Assembly (NCBI GenBank): GCA_965221125.1
Contig: CBDCRW010000006.1
Location: 672,001 to 736,000, forward strand
Source of the DNA: Alphaproteobacteria bacterium
GTDB lineage: Bacteria; Pseudomonadota; Alphaproteobacteria; UBA828
DNA: 64,000 nucleotides
Direction: 5' to 3'
Of the stretch, positions 47,908 to 54,670 are shown piece after piece. The position numbers and the translations under genes were made by a program. Every line of letters starts with the position of its first letter. The first letter of the stretch is position 1. Below the pieces are notes generated by a model. The model made no database searches. It had not been told where the DNA came from and saw nothing but the letters and a program-made list of their open reading frames with translations.

Positions 47908-50109
47908 GTGACGTCCGTGATTCGAAATCTTGCCGCCGAGCTTCGCGCGGACATCCTGTCGGGGAAGGTCACGCCGGCGCTGTCGGCGGGTTTCACCTCG
48001 GGCCTCGGGCTGCTGGCCGCCCAGGTCGCCTTCGGAACCTTCATCTTCTCCGGCCCGCTGGCTCCCTACACGTCGCAGGGCGTGGGCCTGGTGCTGTTCG
48101 GAAACTTCGCCGCCTGTCTGCTCATCGCGCTTTCGAGCGGCTTTCGCGGCGCGATTTCAGGTCTGTCGCCCGCGCTCGTGATCGGGATGGCCGTCATCGG
48201 CTCCACCATGGCGGCCGAAGGCGAGGCGCTGTTCGTCACCACCGCGGCCGCGCTGATCATCGCCGCAGTCGCCACGGGCGCGTTCTGCCTCATGATCGGC
48301 CAGTTTCGTCTCGCCAACGTGGTGCGCTTCATTCCCTACCCCGTTGCGGGCGGGTTCGTCGCGGGAATCGGCGGCGCCGTCTGCATCGCGGCGCTCTCCA
48401 TGATGGGGGTCGATCCGCACTGGGCGGCGGTTCCGTCGTACTTCGACCCCGACGAGCTGTGGAAGTGGGCGCCGGGCACGGCCTACGGGCTGGCCCTCTA
48501 CCTGTCGATGAGGCGCTGGCGGCATCCGCTGATCCTGCCGGTGAGCGTCGTGGTCTTCGTCGGCGCGAGCCATCTCGCACTCTTCGCCCTCGGCATCAGC
48601 GGCGAGGAGGCGAGAGCTGCGGGGCTGCTGTTCACGAGCACGGTGGAGGACAGCCTGTGGCCGGCCCTATCGCCGGCCGACCTCGCGCACGTGGACTGGT
48701 CGGCGATGGCCGGGCGGGTCCCCGACATGCTGACGCTGATCCTGGTCGCCCTCATCTGCGTCGTCATGAACATCGCGGGCCTGGAGCTTGCGGTGAACAG
48801 CGAGTTCGACTGGGACCGGGAGTTCAGGGCCAAGGGCTTCGCGACCGTGATCTCCGGCCTGGGCGGCGGCACGGTGTCGACCCTGGTTGTGCCCGCCTCG
48901 CTGCGCAGCAAGCTGTTCGGCGCGACGACGCGGCTTACCGGCGTGATCGCCGCCCTCGTCATCGGCATCGCTCTGCTCCTGGGCGACGGGATGCTGGAGC
49001 TGGTGCCGGCGCCGCTCGTCGGCGGCATGCTGGTCTTTGCCGGCGCCGGCATGCTGGACGAAGGGCTGGTGAAGAGCTGGAAGCGCCTGCCCCGGCAGGA
49101 GTACGGCATCATCCTGCTGATCTTCGCGATCATCATAGGGCTCGGGCTGCTCGAGGGCGTAGCCGCCGGCATCGCGGCGACGCTCGTGCTCTTCGTCGTG
49201 CGCCTCGGCCGCGTGGACTCGGTCGAGGCGCGGTTCACCCTGCGCGAGCGCCAGAGCAACAAGGCACGGCCTGTCACCGATCACGCCATCCTGCTGGCGG
49301 AGGGTGACCGGGTGCTGGCCTATCGGCTGCGCGGCTACATCTTCTTCGGCAGCGTCGTCCCGCTGGCCAACCAGCTGCGCCAGACGCTGAGCGGTTCCTC
49401 GCCGCCGGCCTGCCTGATGCTGGACTTCGGCGGTGTCTCCGGCTTCGACTTCTCTGCGGTGAGCGTGCTCGGCCGGTTCCTGCAACGGGCCGACGCTGCC
49501 GGCGTTCGAGTGGTTCTGTGCGGAGTCTCCGAGCCGCTGCGGATGGGACTTGAGCGGACCCTGCCGTCAGCCGCGTTCTCCGAATTGCTGATGGAGCCCA
49601 ACGCGGATCGCGCGCTCGAGCGCTGCGAGGACATCGTCATCGCGGCCTGGAGAGCGGACGTGGACGCGGCGGGAGAGCGGCGCAAGGAAATACTGGAGCA
49701 CGCCGGCGAAGACATCGAGCGCTACCTGGACCGGCAGATCCAATTTGAGGACCTGATTGCGGACTTGCGAGAGTGGCTGCATCCGCGCGACTACGCCGCG
49801 GGCCAGCCCCTCGCCGGGCAGGATGCGCCGGACGAAGGCCTGCAGCTGCTGCTTTCCGGCCGGGCCTCGGCGTTCGACGATGCGGGCGCCAGGCTCTATC
49901 AGCTCGGGCCGGGCGATGCGGTGTGGCCGGCGGACGCGCTCGATTCGAACGCGAGCAGCGTGGTTGCCGACCGGCCCTGCCGGACCCTGGCGCTGGCGCC
50001 CGACACCCGGCGCTGGCTGGAATCGCAGCAAGAACAGCTCGCGTTCCGGCTCTATCGCTACCTGCTCTCCAGGCGCTTCGAGGCCGAGCCCGAAGATCGC
50101 TCCCTGTGA
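47908..50109 (+). CDS. SulP/SLC26 anion transporter with STAS domain and degenerate cNMP-binding domain
   Basis: RFIPYPV..GF..GIG, many transmembrane helices, STAS motif LRGYIFFG...DFSA, C-terminal cNMP-like domain. Start uncertain (GTG at 47908 or 47917). Confidence 0.88.
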   Translation: MTSVIRNLAAELRADILSGKVTPALSAGFTSGLGLLAAQVAFGTFIFSGPLAPYTSQGVGLVLFGNFAACLLIALSSGFRGAISGLSPALVIGMAVIGSTMAAEGEALFVTTAAALIIAAVATGAFCLMIGQFRLANVVRFIPYPVAGGFVAGIGGAVCIAALSMMGVDPHWAAVPSYFDPDELWKWAPGTAYGLALYLSMRRWRHPLILPVSVVVFVGASHLALFALGISGEEARAAGLLFTSTVEDSLWPALSPADLAHVDWSAMAGRVPDMLTLILVALICVVMNIAGLELAVNSEFDWDREFRAKGFATVISGLGGGTVSTLVVPASLRSKLFGATTRLTGVIAALVIGIALLLGDGMLELVPAPLVGGMLVFAGAGMLDEGLVKSWKRLPRQEYGIILLIFAIIIGLGLLEGVAAGIAATLVLFVVRLGRVDSVEARFTLRERQSNKARPVTDHAILLAEGDRVLAYRLRGYIFFGSVVPLANQLRQTLSGSSPPACLMLDFGGVSGFDFSAVSVLGRFLQRADAAGVRVVLCGVSEPLRMGLERTLPSAAFSELLMEPNADRALERCEDIVIAAWRADVDAAGERRKEILEHAGEDIERYLDRQIQFEDLIADLREWLHPRDYAAGQPLAGQDAPDEGLQLLLSGRASAFDDAGARLYQLGPGDAVWPADALDSNASSVVADRPCRTLALAPDTRRWLESQQEQLAFRLYRYLLSRRFEAEPEDRSL

Positions 50110-50169
50110 CCACCGGCCGGCACCAGGCTTTCAACTGCACGTCGTTCATGCGTTGAGCAGCAACGCTTT

Positions 50170-50478
50170 GTGGTGACGCACCCGTTTCATCCTCTTCTCG
50201 GACGTGAGTTCGAACTGATCGAGACCACGTCGATGCTTGGGGTGGGGCTGGTCCATTACACGGCTGACGACGGGACGCTGCGCACGATTCGTCAGGCTTT
50301 TACCAGCGTTGCAGCGGTGGATCCGTTTGCGCGGGTAGCGGCGGGCCGGTCGGCGTTCCGTGTCTCGGATCTGCTGACGTTGTCGGCGTTGCTGGATGGC
50401 TTGGGCGGCGGCGAGAGGGTTGGAAAGGAGGCGGCCGGCGGCGCGAGCGGTGTCAAGGAGATTTTGCCGCATGTGTAA
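50170..50478 (+). CDS. DUF5372-like small protein (5' end predicted to be completed only on the circular form)
   Basis: VTHPFHPL.G.EF and DPF....GRS.FR..DLL.L motifs; the frame is open back to the element end at 50128; no RBS before the GTG at 50170. Confidence 0.75.
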   Translation: MVTHPFHPLLGREFELIETTSMLGVGLVHYTADDGTLRTIRQAFTSVAAVDPFARVAAGRSAFRVSDLLTLSALLDGLGGGERVGKEAAGGASGVKEILPHV

Positions 50479-50660
50479 GAGCGTTTTTGTCCATACCTGG
50501 CGGTCGGAGGTTGTCGTATGGACTGGAAGGGCGGTCATGATCGACCAATATACACGGTATTTCGGCCTGTTTTCGTCGATATGGGGCAAGAAAGGGTTTG
50601 ATGCGATGCCAGGGGTGTGCATAAATATACTTACATTCCTCCGCCGCCGGAGCCCACGCA

Positions 50661-51122
50661 ATGGCCAGACGCCCCGCCGACGCCAAGACCCGCTCCCTCA
50701 AGGAGCACGGCTGCCTCAACCCGAACGCGGAGACGGTGCGCGACGAGCTGTTCCTGTCCAACGCGTTCTTCGACCCGCGCGACCTGGTCCAGGTCAGGTA
50801 CGAGATGCTGCGCCGTGTGCGCGAGGACGGCGTGCCGGTGAGCCACGCCGCGGCCAGCTTCGGCGTCTCGCGGCCCACCTGGTACCAGGCGCAGCGCGCC
50901 TACGATGCGGGCGGGCTGCCGGGCCTGCTGCCGGAGAAGCCGGGACCCCGCCGACGCCACAAGCTCAGCGACGAGGTGGTCGAGGCGCTGCTCGCGGCGA
51001 AGAGCGAACAGCCGGAGTTGACCGCCGCCGCGCTGGTCGATCTGGTGCGCGCGCGCTTTGGCATCACCATCCATCGCCGCAGCATCGGCCGCATGCTCGC
51101 GCAGGTAAAAAAAAGCCGATGA
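50661..51122 (+). CDS. Helix-turn-helix DNA-binding protein (transposase N-terminus-like, no catalytic domain)
   Basis: FFDPRDLVQVRYEMLR, AAASFGVSRPTWY, GLPGLLPEKPGPR and IHRRSI motifs. Confidence 0.85.
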   Translation: MARRPADAKTRSLKEHGCLNPNAETVRDELFLSNAFFDPRDLVQVRYEMLRRVREDGVPVSHAAASFGVSRPTWYQAQRAYDAGGLPGLLPEKPGPRRRHKLSDEVVEALLAAKSEQPELTAAALVDLVRARFGITIHRRSIGRMLAQVKKSR

Positions 51123-51421
51123 AGTGCCGGCCGCCGCTCGCCGGGCTGCTCCCGCTGGAACATTCCGCCTATGGGGACGGCTACGAGCGGCTGCGCCGTC
51201 ATGCGGTCGAGCCCGGCACAGAGCACAACCGTCACGGGCTTGCCGTGGTGGCGTTGCGCGGCGTCGCGGCCTGGCTGCACGCCGTGGCCGAGTTGCCCGC
51301 CCCGCCGGCCGCCGTTTGCGCCGGCGCCTCGACCGAGCCGCTGCCCGGCGGGGTCGAGAAGTCGCTGATCGACATTCTTCTCGCGATGCTCAAGGGCCAT
51401 ATGGAAGGAGAGTTGGCATGA
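51119..51421 (+). CDS. Small hypothetical protein (100 aa) of the element
   Basis: ATGA overlaps with both the HTH gene and the recombinase gene; MKCRPP...YERLRRHA...GLAVV.LRGVAAWL. Confidence 0.7.
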   Translation: MKCRPPLAGLLPLEHSAYGDGYERLRRHAVEPGTEHNRHGLAVVALRGVAAWLHAVAELPAPPAAVCAGASTEPLPGGVEKSLIDILLAMLKGHMEGELA

Positions 51422-53493
51422 GCACTGCCTATCAGAAGGTGAGCGCGAACCACCTGAGCCGCGATGCTTACCTGTACGTGCGTCAGTCCACCGTGCGCCA
51501 GGTGTTCGAACATGGCGAGAGCACGCGCCGCCAGTACGCGCTGCGCGAGCGGGCCGTGGCCCTGGGCTGGCCGACCGAGAACGTCGTCGTGATCGATTGC
51601 GATCAGGGCCTGTCCGGCGCCGACAAGGACCGCGAAGGCTTCCAGCGTCTGGTCGCCGACGTCAGCTTGGGCCGGGCCGGGATCGTGCTCGGGCTCGAGG
51701 TGTCAAGGCTCGCGCGCAATTCCACCGAGTGGCATCGGCTGGTCGAGATCTGTGACCTGAGCGAGACGCTGATCCTCGACGAGGACGGCCTCTACAATCC
51801 AGGAGACTTCAACGACAGGCTCCTGCTCGGGCTCAAAGGGACCATGTCGGAAGCGGAGCTGCACATGATGCGCGCCCGGCTGCGCGGTGGGACGCTGAAC
51901 GCGGCCAAGCGTGGGGAGTTGAAGTTGCCGCTGCCGGTGGGACTGGTCTATGACCCGCTCGGCAACGTGGTGCTCGACCCCGACGAACAAGTGCAGCATA
52001 GCCTGCGCCTGTTCTTCGATACCTTCACCCGGCTCGGCTCGGCTAATGCCACGGTCAAGTATTTCAGGGCCGAGAACCTGCTTTTCCCCTACCGTCCTCT
52101 CCACGGGCCGCACAAGGGCGAGCTGCATTGGAAGCCGCTGAGGTTCGCGCGGGCACTGCGAGTGCTGCGCAATCCGCGATACGCCGGCGCTTACGCGTAC
52201 GGGCGCAGCCGCAGCCGGCGGCGTCCCGGCGGCGGTGTCGAGACCCAACGTCTGCCACGTGAGGAATGGATGGTGGAGCTGCGCGATGCGCACCCGGGCT
52301 ACATCACCTGGGAGCGGTTCGAACAGAACGAGAGCCAGCTTCGCGACAACAATGCTGCCCGAGCGCGCGGCGCGGAGCGCCGCCCTCCCCCACGCGAGGG
52401 GCCGGCACTGCTGCAGGGACTGGCTGTCTGCGGCGTGTGCGGCCGGAGCATGGGGGTGCGCTACTACAAGCAAAAATCAAAGGAGCTGCACCCCTACTAC
52501 CTGTGCAGCCATGAAGGTGCGCAGACGGCGAGCGCCTGGTGTCAGAGCATCCCCGGCGCTGCCATCGACCGCGCGGTCGGCGAGTTGCTGGTGGAGCTGA
52601 TGACGCCGTTGACGCTGGAGGTGGCGTTGCAGGTGCAGGACGAACTCACCGCGCGCGCCGAGGAGGCCGATCTGTGGCGCGCTCAGCGAGTGCAGCGCGC
52701 CCGCGAGGAAGCGGACCTGGCGCGGCAGAGGTTCATGCAGACCCATCCCGACAACCGGATAGTAGCCGACGTGCTGGAGGCGGAGTGGAACGCGAAGCTT
52801 CGGACGCTGGACGAGGCGCAGCGAGAGCTCGAGCGCAGCCGCGCGGATCCGGGCCAGGGGTTGGACGAAGGGCAACGCAAGCGAATCCTCGCGCTGGCCA
52901 GCGACTTCCCCCGCCTGTGGAACGATCCTGCGACGCCGCACCGCGAGCGCAAGCGGATGGCGCGGCTGCTGATCGAGGACGTGACGCTGACCAGGGCCAC
53001 GCGGAGCCTGGGGGTGCGTCTGCGCGGCGGCGCGACCCGCCAGCTCACCTGGGCGCCGGATCCTCTCGGATGTGAGACCTTCAAGACCAAGGCCGAGATC
53101 GTCGCCGAGGTCGACAGCCTGTTGAACGACCACAACTATGGCGAGATCGCCAAAATCCTCAACGAGCGCGGATACCGAAGCGGTTACGGCCACGCCTTTA
53201 CCCCGAAGTTGGTGGGGGTGCTGCGAGCGAACTACGCTCTCAAGCCACGCTATGAACGGCTGCGCGATCGCGGGCTGTTGACGGTCAACGAGGCCGCCGA
53301 GCGCCTCGCGGTCTCCGTCGGCACAGTCAACCAATGGCGCAAGGCCGGGCTCTTGCGCGGACACGCCTACACCGGCGGATCCGACTACTTGTACGAGATT
53401 CCCGACCCTCCGCCGACCAAACAACCGGGGCGAAAGCTGTCTCTGCGCAAACCGAGCTGCAACCTTGCCCCCACAGGAATAGATGAGGTGTAG
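51418..53493 (+). CDS. Large serine recombinase (resolvase + recombinase + Zn ribbon + coiled coil + C-terminal HTH), 691 aa
   Basis: YVRQST (catalytic Ser), DQGLSG, EVSRLAR, NPRYAG, CGVCG...YYLC...C; GAAGGAG RBS before the ATG at 51418. Confidence 0.95.
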   Translation: MSTAYQKVSANHLSRDAYLYVRQSTVRQVFEHGESTRRQYALRERAVALGWPTENVVVIDCDQGLSGADKDREGFQRLVADVSLGRAGIVLGLEVSRLARNSTEWHRLVEICDLSETLILDEDGLYNPGDFNDRLLLGLKGTMSEAELHMMRARLRGGTLNAAKRGELKLPLPVGLVYDPLGNVVLDPDEQVQHSLRLFFDTFTRLGSANATVKYFRAENLLFPYRPLHGPHKGELHWKPLRFARALRVLRNPRYAGAYAYGRSRSRRRPGGGVETQRLPREEWMVELRDAHPGYITWERFEQNESQLRDNNAARARGAERRPPPREGPALLQGLAVCGVCGRSMGVRYYKQKSKELHPYYLCSHEGAQTASAWCQSIPGAAIDRAVGELLVELMTPLTLEVALQVQDELTARAEEADLWRAQRVQRAREEADLARQRFMQTHPDNRIVADVLEAEWNAKLRTLDEAQRELERSRADPGQGLDEGQRKRILALASDFPRLWNDPATPHRERKRMARLLIEDVTLTRATRSLGVRLRGGATRQLTWAPDPLGCETFKTKAEIVAEVDSLLNDHNYGEIAKILNERGYRSGYGHAFTPKLVGVLRANYALKPRYERLRDRGLLTVNEAAERLAVSVGTVNQWRKAGLLRGHAYTGGSDYLYEIPDPPPTKQPGRKLSLRKPSCNLAPTGIDEV

Positions 53494-53614
53494 TATGAAG
53501 CGTACTCTCGGTTCCCGAGCGGATATTCCGTCACGGTTTGACCGCCGGGGCCGGCTGCCTATCATGCGCGCCGTCCGGGCGCAGCCCGCGGCAGAGCAAT
53601 GAGGAGATCAGGGA

Positions 53615-54670
53615 ATGGCGAAGGGTAAGGCGGTCGTCGTCGGCGGCCTCGGTATGATCGGGCGCAACATCATCCAGGCACTCGAGGCCGAAGGCGGGTG
53701 GGACATCGTCGGGCTGTCGCGCAGGCCGGCGAACTTCGAGACCGGGGCCACCTTCATCTCCGTCGACCTGCTGGACGAGGGCCAAGCGAGGGAGAAGCTC
53801 GCGAGCCTCACCGACGTCACCCACATCTTCTATGCCGGCCTCTCCGGCGGCGTCGAGGCCGAGAACGTCGAGGGCAACCTCGCGCTCGTGGTCAACTCCG
53901 TCGGCGTGATCGAGCCCGTCTCGCCCACGCTGGAGCGCGTGATCCTGGTGCAGGGCGGCAAGTACTACGGCGTCCACCTGGGCCCGCACAAGACGCCGTC
54001 GAAGGAGACCGACCCGCGCCACCTGCCGCCCAACTTCTATTACAACCAGCAGGATTTCATCACCGACCTGCAGCAGGGCAAGTCCTGGCACTACACCATG
54101 CTGCGGCCCGAGGCCGTGGTCGGCTTCGCCGAGGGTATCCCGCTCAACACCGCCTCGCTCGTCGCGGTCTATGCCTCCGTGTGCAAGGAGATGGACGTGC
54201 CGCTGAACTATCCGGGGCCGGAGGCGGCGTTCACGGCCTTCAACAAGTTCGTCGACGCCAGGCTGCTCGGCCGCTGCGCCGCCTGGGCGGCGCAGAACCC
54301 CGCCTGCGCCGGCGAGGCCTTCAACGTGACCAACGCGTCAGGCATGCGCTGGTGCAACCTGTGGCCGCTCTTCACCGCGTATTTCGGCTGCCGGCCGGGG
54401 GTGCTGGTGCCGATGAAGCTCGCGGACTTCATGGCCGACAAGGGCCCGGTGTGGGACGAGATCGCGCGCAAGCACCAGCTCAAGGGCATGGCGTTCTCGG
54501 ACCTCGGCGACTGGGGCTTCGCCGACTGGAACTTCGGCCGAACCTGGGACACCATCCTGGAGGACACCAAGCGGCTCCAGTACGGCTTCACCGAAGCCAT
54601 CGACACCGACCAGAACTTCATCGAGATTTTCGACGACATGCGCGCCGCCCGGGTCATCCCGGCGGGCTGA
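53615..54670 (+). CDS. Atypical SDR, PRISE (progesterone 5-beta-reductase/iridoid synthase-like) family
   Basis: GGLGMIG, GLSRR, DVTHIFY, GGKYY and PNFYY motifs. Confidence 0.85.
   Translation: MAKGKAVVVGGLGMIGRNIIQALEAEGGWDIVGLSRRPANFETGATFISVDLLDEGQAREKLASLTDVTHIFYAGLSGGVEAENVEGNLALVVNSVGVIEPVSPTLERVILVQGGKYYGVHLGPHKTPSKETDPRHLPPNFYYNQQDFITDLQQGKSWHYTMLRPEAVVGFAEGIPLNTASLVAVYASVCKEMDVPLNYPGPEAAFTAFNKFVDARLLGRCAAWAAQNPACAGEAFNVTNASGMRWCNLWPLFTAYFGCRPGVLVPMKLADFMADKGPVWDEIARKHQLKGMAFSDLGDWGFADWNFGRTWDTILEDTKRLQYGFTEAIDTDQNFIEIFDDMRAARVIPAG

Follow-up and report, generated by a model that had tools for sequence, protein, structure and literature searches.

How can a small gene be expressed when its reading frame and the signals for its translation lie at opposite ends of a mobile element? 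This question is raised by a locus in the genome of an alphaproteobacterium (Alphaproteobacteria bacterium, UBA828; GCA_965221125.1). The window that we analysed, the whole stretch of 64,000 nt at positions 672,001-736,000 of contig CBDCRW010000006.1 and the reference for all coordinates below, contains an element at 50118-53510 that is 3393 bp long in the integrated state, with a predicted circle of 3391 bp. It consists of four genes on the same strand, which encode a DUF5372 protein, a helix-turn-helix (HTH) protein, a 100-amino acid product (ORF3) and a large serine recombinase (LSR). The body of the DUF5372 gene lies at the left end, and a Shine-Dalgarno (SD) sequence and an ATG codon that point out of the element lie at the right end. 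We think it fairly probable, with a good measure of doubt, that this is an LSR transposon whose DUF5372 gene is split across the core of its attachment (att) site, and that the product is a directionality cofactor gated by the topology of the element.

Boundaries of the element and the crossover dinucleotide

The genome carries three copies of the element, which are 100% identical from about 50116 to 53510. Their flanks diverge immediately outside CGGCACCAG... on the left and ...GTACTCTCG on the right, and contigs assembled from public runs end or branch at 50118 (X1 and X6) and at 53510 or 53507 (X1, X5 and X6). The divergence of the copies and the contig break-points together place the ends at a CG dinucleotide (Table 1), which is found at both ends in 3/3 copies. 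When the element was removed in silico with one CG retained, open frames of 1001 and 670 amino acids resulted across the two other insertion sites, the shorter of which carries a relaxase-like ...LDPQLHTHAVV... stretch. In a sister genome (G008) the corresponding element, 84% identical, is flanked by AC at both ends, and a further genome (G009) holds two uninterrupted paralogous sites whose alignment to the left flank of the G008 element ends at position 594 and to its right flank begins at 592, so that exactly 2 nt (AC) are shared. A dinucleotide that recurs at either end and is present once in the empty site is the pattern of transposons of the Tn4451/Tn5397 type, and the use of many insertion sites that also marks this type is seen in the three different sites within the genome and in the many flanks among relatives.

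The original prediction had placed the recombination core at a GC found at both 50127-50128 and 53500-53501, with a circle of 3373 bp, a junction open reading frame (ORF) of 118 amino acids and homology between copies that should stop at the GC. The dinucleotide is indeed common to both places, and the count of 10/15 symmetric positions around it is arithmetically correct for the string joined there. However, the aligned copies are identical for 9 bp beyond the GC on each side, the contigs break at 50118 and at 53507/53510, relatives have their matching dinucleotides 13 nt beyond the repeat core, and the 2-nt overlap at the empty site falls on the corrected position. A core at the GC is refuted by this evidence, and we allow it hardly any chance of being right. 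With the ends moved outward the circle gains 18 bp over the earlier length, and the string once proposed as the empty site turns out to consist of element sequence.

No empty site for the copy in the window was found in relatives, because its two flanks map to different places there. These flanks (49300-50105 and 53534-54300) fall on different contigs or at distant places in every genome of the same genus that has both, a pattern that points to rearrangement at this copy or to recombination among the copies.

A proposed gene split across the recombination site

The right end of the element reads GAGGTG (53485-53490), the recombinase stop codon TAG (53491-53493), a single T and the outward ATG (53495-53497). 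Joining the ends through one CG gives an ORF of 124 codons in frame with DUF5372, which is made up of five codons from 53495-53509 followed by 50119-50475 and has the att core placed between codons 5 and 6. The original prediction had read the right end in the same way, had noted a left-end frame open into a DUF5372-like ORF, now matched by Pfam (PF17342, E = 4.4e-21; 75.2 bits against a gathering cut-off of 25), and had seen no ribosome binding site ahead of that ORF, all of which agrees with our reading. Its junction ORF was likewise in frame with DUF5372 and was six codons too short; the frame survives the correction because the two junctions differ by 18 nt, or six codons.

Both ends were present in 28 elements, comprising that of the window, four from the same genus, four from plasmids and 19 loci from a one-genome-per-species scan, with extra copies of the same element and single-ended copies left out of the counts and right ends located by motif alone. 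These elements have a common geometry. On the left a dinucleotide (XX) is followed by 11 nt and the repeat core TCAACTGCAC or a variant of it, with the V codon of VTHPFHP 42 nt past the start of the core; on the right an SD-like GAGG is followed by the repeat core GTGnAGT, the ATG, 11 nt and XX. The dinucleotide 55 nt before the V codon is identical to that 11 nt past the start codon in 21/28 loci, and five more agree (26/28) after a 3-nt shift of the left-end offset; in L061-63 and L033 the repeat core is itself displaced by 3 nt, and in L031 the V codon had been placed 3 nt off. Eight dinucleotides were seen (CG, TC, CT, TG, TT, AG, AC and AT), and two whole contigs, L053 (3333 bp) and L070 (3325 bp), start and finish exactly at TT...TT.

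The end dinucleotides disagree in 2/28 loci, L041 (TT/CG) and L043 (CT/CG). The genome in which these two lie has at least six copies (L039, L042, L044 and L056 being the others), the sisters have CT/CT, and the left-end dinucleotide varies among CG, TT and CT from copy to copy. Exchange between copies or tolerance of mismatched cores may explain such ends.

From the start codon to the V codon, a distance of 22-24 codons, the junction frame is free of stops in 28/28 elements, compared with 4/28 for each other frame, one of which contains the TGA that is conserved within ATGAA. If only the left part is counted, the corresponding figures are 28/28 as against 8/28 and 20/28. Insertions and deletions between core and domain measure only -3 or +3 nt in intact copies, and length changes of ±1 occur only in L058 and L067, each of which adjoins a near-identical sibling without the shift. 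The expectation, set out beforehand, that homologous junctions would be in frame more often than the 1/3 given by chance is borne out by these counts, as far as a frame that is fixed by geometry in elements that are kin can bear it out.

Translation signals at the two ends

The start codon at the right end is ATG in 26/28 elements and GTG in the other two, and an SD-like 4-mer stands at -14 to -5 of it in all 28. When the same rule was applied to internal, in-frame ATG, GTG and TTG candidates at the left end, an SD-like 4-mer was found for 1/28 candidates; seven of the left ends hold none of these codons at all, and in the window no SD-like 4-mer precedes GTG 50170 or GTG 50173. The first conserved residue (V/I of VTHPFHP) is encoded by GTG in 18/28 elements and by GTC, GTA, GTT or ATC in 10/28, and there is no promoter-like site within the 55-nt left end. 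Gene callers place the start of DUF5372 variously, giving products of 81 amino acids (the call in the window, from an internal Met), 101 amino acids (the V codon read as M) or longer ones that run into the flanks, and this inconsistency fits a gene without a start of its own.

Comparison of the two arms points in the same direction. When mirrored, they share GGA (positions 1-3) and ACTGCAC (positions 15-21) across the 28 elements. At positions 12-14 (CAT), which form the start codon of the right arm, 28, 28 and 26 of 28 right arms are conserved, compared with 24, 24 and 23 for the left-arm mirror; at positions 22-24 (CTC), which belong to the SD sequence, the numbers are 28, 26 and 27 compared with 18, 15 and 13. 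To judge from the alignment, translation signals superimposed on a binding site would produce such an asymmetry. In 22/28 elements the stop codon of the recombinase gene is at -4, +1 (ATGA) or +8 of the ATG, a spacing that, in sequence terms, is that of coupled genes; since these stops lie in different frames, the SD-ATG motif is not recombinase coding sequence. For L021 the stop is at -52 by one rule, and by the other there is none before the end of the element.

The TGA (50107-50109) of an upstream 795-amino acid ORF shares the frame of DUF5372 and lies three codons ahead of the element. The two would be fused by read-through of this stop, and the shared frame is probably a matter of chance.

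The joined form in nature

Metagenome contigs were scanned with a degenerate pattern in which the right-end motif stands 24 nt ahead of the left-end motif. A stricter junction pattern had no matches in these contigs, and a relaxed one had 33, about the number expected by chance according to our estimate, of which 31 are unrelated and two are real. One of the two, L109, encodes recombinase residues 7-691 followed by a junction centred on TT and a complete DUF5372 ORF of 103 amino acids, with ATC as the V-position codon; the other, L106, contains the 3' end of a recombinase gene, the junction and a complete DUF5372 ORF of 102 amino acids. The joined form therefore exists in nature, and these contigs, together with the comparative evidence, uphold the earlier claim that the split gene is encoded whole in the joined form only. 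With the same or a near-identical pattern, the joined form was found in 0/21 genomes of the genus, though several of them carry three or more copies, and was not found in viral contigs. Two repeated sequences, in 11 and 2 contigs, make up 13 of the 31 unrelated matches, and L082, L084, L086, L087, L093, L097, L098, L105 and L108 have in common an AT-rich unrelated sequence that fits the pattern by chance.

Predicted binding of DUF5372 to the recombinase

The LSR and DUF5372 were co-folded, with an alignment of 15 sequences for each. The complex was predicted with an ipSAE of 0.75 over three runs (0.74-0.77), and all three controls gave 0.00; at least 69% of contacts agree between the runs, and the pLDDT of the partner is at least 66. 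The mark applied to ipSAE is reached by 58/80 solved complexes and 2/110 mismatched pairs, rates that hold only roughly here because custom alignments were used. On the LSR the predicted interface comprises residues 337-342, 394-413, 482-518 and 532-542, which in the fold model are the strands of the zinc ribbon (336-379 and 519-544) and the domain-proximal ends of the helical hairpin 397-475, formed by long helices at 397-441 and 447-475. On DUF5372, 15/19 invariant columns fall in the predicted interface, THPFHP and GRSAFRV among them.

The accessible text of PMC12286644 states that verified recombination directionality factors (RDFs), whatever their fold, are predicted to bind at the junction of DBD2 and the coiled coil, and that of PMC5814800 reports the same LSR region for phiC31 gp3. 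Because DUF5372 is predicted to bind where directionality factors bind, we read it as an RDF-like cofactor. The model of the protein itself, from a query of 119 amino acids, has a small beta-barrel (about residues 20-60) and a helix, with a pLDDT of 63.5. When this model was compared with the PDB by Foldseek, no match reached E <= 0.001 and the top rows were small KOW/SH3-type beta-barrels; nothing resembling DUF5372 or ORF3 was found in PHROGs and phage records.

Genes and sites of the element

The features of the element are listed in Table 1.

Table 1. Coordinates of genes, recombination sites and candidate expression signals of the element in the window
Feature	Position	Strand	Basis or remark
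Left crossover dinucleotide CG, one copy target-derived	50118..50119	+	Divergence of 3 copies; contig loose ends X1/X6; same at both ends
Left arm: 11 nt, then inverted-repeat core TCAACTGCAC	50120..50140	+	12/21 positions mirror right arm
DUF5372 5' extension, 18 codons, open, without SD	50119..50172	+	GTG 50170 the only in-frame start-type codon
DUF5372 domain ORF (VTHPFHP... to stop)	50173..50478	+	Pfam PF17342
Promoter-like TTGATG-N17-ATAAAT upstream of HTH gene, inferred	50598..50626	+	Conservation
HTH protein, 153 amino acids (HTH_32/HTH_23)	50661..51122	+	Resembles N-terminal DNA-binding part of IS630/IS481 transposases
ORF3, 100 amino acids	51119..51421	+	No family
LSR, 691 amino acids	51418..53493	+	Pfam and NCBIfam
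Outward SD GAGG(TG) and ATG, 1 nt past recombinase stop	53485..53497	+	
Right arm: GTGTAGT core, then ATG and 11 nt	53488..53508	+	
Right crossover dinucleotide CG	53509..53510	+	Copy divergence and contig break-points

Positions 1-77 of the PF17342 profile align to residues 2-78 of the DUF5372 protein when it is numbered from GTG 50170, and 242 homologues of this protein were found. The HTH gene, ORF3 and the recombinase gene overlap successively by ATGA. ORF3 had no match in Pfam, NCBIfam or PHROGs, and its position is conserved among relatives. Upstream of the HTH gene, TTGA and ATAA of the promoter-like site are invariant across 12 aligned elements, as is GGAG ahead of the HTH ATG; a sigma-70 promoter scan listed no promoter inside the element, and the site is proposed from conservation only. 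At the stop codon of DUF5372 (50474-50490) the sequence reads TGTAAGA, three variable bases and TTTT(T), with TGTAAG and TTTT invariant in the 12 aligned elements. The T-run past this stop is not accompanied by a convincing terminator (fold z-score -0.34).

The recombinase has the domains of an LSR, namely an N-terminal catalytic domain (PF00239, E = 2.6e-20, residues 17-167), a recombinase domain and a zinc ribbon with an inserted coiled coil (matches to PF07508 and PF13408), and the motif R22-Q23-S24 is invariant in 15 sequences. The IS607 family is ruled out by the N-terminal catalytic domain, the length of 691 amino acids and the presence of the recombinase and zinc-ribbon domains. An extra DNA-binding domain of the HTH_17/excisionase type occupies the C-terminal residues from about 620 to 654 (window 53275-53380). 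The accessible text of PMC12286644 notes that in some LSRs the RDF site may be taken up by additional structure at the C terminus.

Proposed mechanism and alternative explanations

We propose that the element is a small transposon that would be moved by its LSR and would integrate by a 2-bp staggered exchange, as a result of which each end is flanked by the same dinucleotide. The core at which recombination takes place would lie within the DUF5372 gene, whose SD sequence and ATG, together with five codons, would be at the right end and whose remainder would be at the left. In the integrated state the body of DUF5372 would be left without a promoter, SD sequence or conserved start of its own. 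With the ends joined, in an excised circle or a head-to-tail tandem, DUF5372 would be the last, translationally coupled gene of an operon reading promoter-HTH-ORF3-LSR-DUF5372, and we infer that it is expressed from this joined form only. The original prediction had also drawn a closed operon of four genes, with DUF5372 as the first; the joined operon is retained, and DUF5372 is better read as its last gene because it follows the recombinase at coupling distance in the circle and the promoter-like site precedes the HTH gene. Its product is predicted to clamp the junction of the zinc domain and the coiled coil of the LSR, and would be a directionality cofactor, with the topology of the element deciding whether it is made.

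As to the effect of DUF5372, our guess is that it favours or locks the integration of the circle, or acts otherwise after excision. A possible, if rather doubtful, elaboration is a switch by which the element would sense its own state. Excision would be carried out by the LSR, either unaided or perhaps with the help of ORF2 or ORF3; when the circle forms, DUF5372 would be made by coupling to the recombinase and would clamp the hinge between the zinc domain and the coiled coil, turning the LSR into an integrase or else blocking both re-excision and re-entry into the donor site; integration would then behead the DUF5372 gene and reset the system. If so, DUF5372 would be a "reverse RDF", and a new route to one-way transposition from a reversible recombinase would have been found.

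Several points weigh against the split gene and the role proposed for its product. With a symmetric 11-2-11 geometry the junction is bound to be in frame, so that its frame is not an independent observation for each element, and the 28 elements are kin as well. The 32-nt extension has no codon periodicity (entropy 1.41/1.37/1.34 as against 0.67/0.69/1.16 in the domain); its translation is argued solely from its openness and whole-codon length, and it is probably a free, disordered linker, with a modelled pLDDT below 50. A GTG codon stands exactly at the start of the Pfam domain in the 18 elements mentioned above, that of the window included, and could permit some SD-less initiation in the integrated state, given read-in transcription; L031, L035 and L049 have an internal in-frame ATG. 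Because the SD sequence and the ATG overlap the recombinase-binding arm, part of their conservation may serve DNA binding. The binding of DUF5372 to the zinc-domain/coiled-coil junction is a prediction only, and complex-prediction pull-downs yield false positives, with 6/9 integrases verified in the accessible text of PMC12286644. A canonical RDF stimulates excision and so would be required while the element is integrated, a condition under which the DUF5372 gene is headless. Finally, L106 and L109 are short, so that a circle, a tandem and an episome cannot be told apart in them, and the circle junction of the window's own genome did not appear in the assembled public-run contigs, which cannot show rare forms.

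Some of these points would be accommodated if DUF5372 were an ordinary gene, translated when integrated from GTG 50170/50173 or from a non-canonical start, with the SD-ATG of the right end conserved as a recombinase-binding arm or as a context for coupling or termination, and the junction ORF a by-product of symmetry. The beginning of the Pfam domain at the GTG and the prevalence of that codon there speak for this explanation, as do gene callers, which mostly give the 101-amino acid proteins from it, an extension without coding periodicity and a frame set by geometry. We nevertheless consider it unlikely, as ten elements have another codon at this position and seven left ends offer no start codon whatever, SD-like 4-mers are a feature of right ends and next to absent from internal starts, and conservation of the start and SD positions is far stronger in the right arm than at their left-arm mirror. 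Neither the uniformly stop-free junction frame, nor the restriction of indels in intact copies to three nucleotides, nor a left end without a promoter-like site is what such a gene would lead one to expect. It is less likely again that the gene is truly split and that the joined form that matters is a head-to-tail tandem or a stable episome, not a transient circle. Tandem junctions drive expression in some insertion sequence (IS) families, and in both L106 and L109 it is the joined path that the assembly followed as the main one; however, the genomes of the genus, including those with several copies, and the viral contigs yielded no joined form, and no replication function is recognised by Pfam among the four genes.

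Comparison with known systems

A transposon with a gene split across its att core, as we propose, has partial parallels. Like Tn4451/Tn4453 (TnpX) and Tn5397 (TndX), the element has an LSR as its transposase, a 2-bp crossover with the same dinucleotide at each end and many target sites. The circle joint of Tn4451 forms a promoter for tnpX (Lyras and Rood 2000, as given in the accessible text of PMC13023037), and in our element too the joint is predicted to alter expression. Unlike in Tn4451 and Tn5397, the joint here would complete a coding sequence and not a promoter, the gated gene would be that of an accessory protein and not of the recombinase, and the element is a 3.4-kb unit of four genes without cargo whose LSR is distantly related to theirs. 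A state-specific expression unit formed only on joining would also be shared with ICEclc (Pcirc) and ICEKp1 (P3'end), in which, by the accessible text of PMC13023037, a promoter for the integrase is assembled or repositioned by the joining of ends; here, in contrast, the ORF of a predicted recombinase partner would be assembled.

Integrases of the SSV type (SSV1, pTN3 and pT26-2) have the att site inside their own gene, which is split by integration and whole in the circle, and the accessible text of the review that describes them (PMC8371274) gives recombinases that break up the gene encoding them as found only in archaea. The att core of our element likewise lies within one of its own genes. 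The SSV-type enzymes are tyrosine recombinases and the integrase itself is split, whereas here the serine recombinase is intact and the gene of a bacterial cofactor would be cut after codon 5, with its translation signals separated from it. With the RDFs phiC31 gp3, SPbeta SprB and Bxb1 gp47, DUF5372 shares its small size and the predicted binding at the junction of DBD2 (zinc domain) and the coiled coil. It shows no relation to them in sequence or fold, as judged by the Foldseek and phage searches above, and RDFs are made when excision is wanted, whereas DUF5372 would be made after excision. Among the DUF5372-recombinase elements of rhizobial and other plasmids, the gene order is the same in the three annotated records given below, and pNGR234a has the same end geometry. 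The present case combines junction-dependent expression with an att-split gene in a bacterial serine-recombinase transposon, for a predicted partner of the recombinase.

Serine integrases are prized for genome engineering, in which their direction is set by a small cofactor, and to our knowledge it is poorly understood how serine-recombinase transposons escape futile excision and re-insertion. If our proposal is correct, a widespread family controls a cofactor that binds its recombinase by dividing the cofactor gene between the two sides of the recombination site. The junction promoters of IS elements and the integrase genes that are split in archaeal viruses would then have a compact analogue at the level of protein. 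DUF5372 would moreover receive its first function, the inconsistent starts that gene callers give it would be accounted for, and a ready-made, state-dependent pair of LSR and cofactor with short, defined sites would be at hand.

Relatives and insertion targets

Searched by tblastn, the recombinase has matches in 524 plasmid records, in 402 of which they extend over 80% or more of it. Rhizobium, Sinorhizobium and Bradyrhizobium account for most of the 524, and others are from Burkholderia, Rhodococcus and Streptomyces; identity to the copy in the window is 50-56% among the plasmid matches listed. The order of four genes is annotated in three plasmid records (Burkholderia, Rhodococcus and Aromatoleum) and is present in pAtK84c, for which only two of the genes are annotated in the K84 record. 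Plasmid pNGR234a has three copies and one fragment, with TT...TT ends, GTG/ATG as the right-end start and GTC as the V codon, so that the original prediction, which pointed to a relative in NGR234 under the names y4bA-D/NGRIS-4, is correct at the level of the family. In the literature searched, which included few subscription journals, we found no paper on the DUF5372-recombinase family, and none names DUF5372 or NGRIS-4. Elements in genomes of the same genus are 76-85% identical to that of the window. The one-genome-per-species scan returned 39 loci, which span Alpha- and Gammaproteobacteria, Chloroflexota, Nitrospinaceae, Thermodesulfobacteriota, Acidobacteriota and Actinomycetota, and a class-wide Pfam scan found DUF5372 in 4/401 genomes.

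Genes that belong to other mobile elements are hit repeatedly at conserved motifs, with the element inserted antisense to them (L054, L061-L063, L031, L032, L068, L033, L034 and L002/L003, the last pair being in the window's genome). The element has the look of a parasite living on other mobile DNA. The target motifs include ...YDNA.AES... of IS3-type transposases (the type hit in L031, L032, L054 and L061-L063), ...NGK.ERF..., ...DKAKVE... of IS21 IstA and ...AKRLE... of IS66 TnpB, and further targets are the relaxase ...LDPQLHTH... stretch and a helicase-like ORF; these family names were assigned by reading translated flanks and neighbouring annotation, not by profile search. The target of the G008/G009 elements (L116 173-1093 in G009; flanks of L017-L023) is a multi-copy gene whose product consists of repeated ...R..AAG.C..CG...C..C... 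modules that resemble zinc ribbons, and the insertion point lies in a ...YAER|VAAG... stretch.

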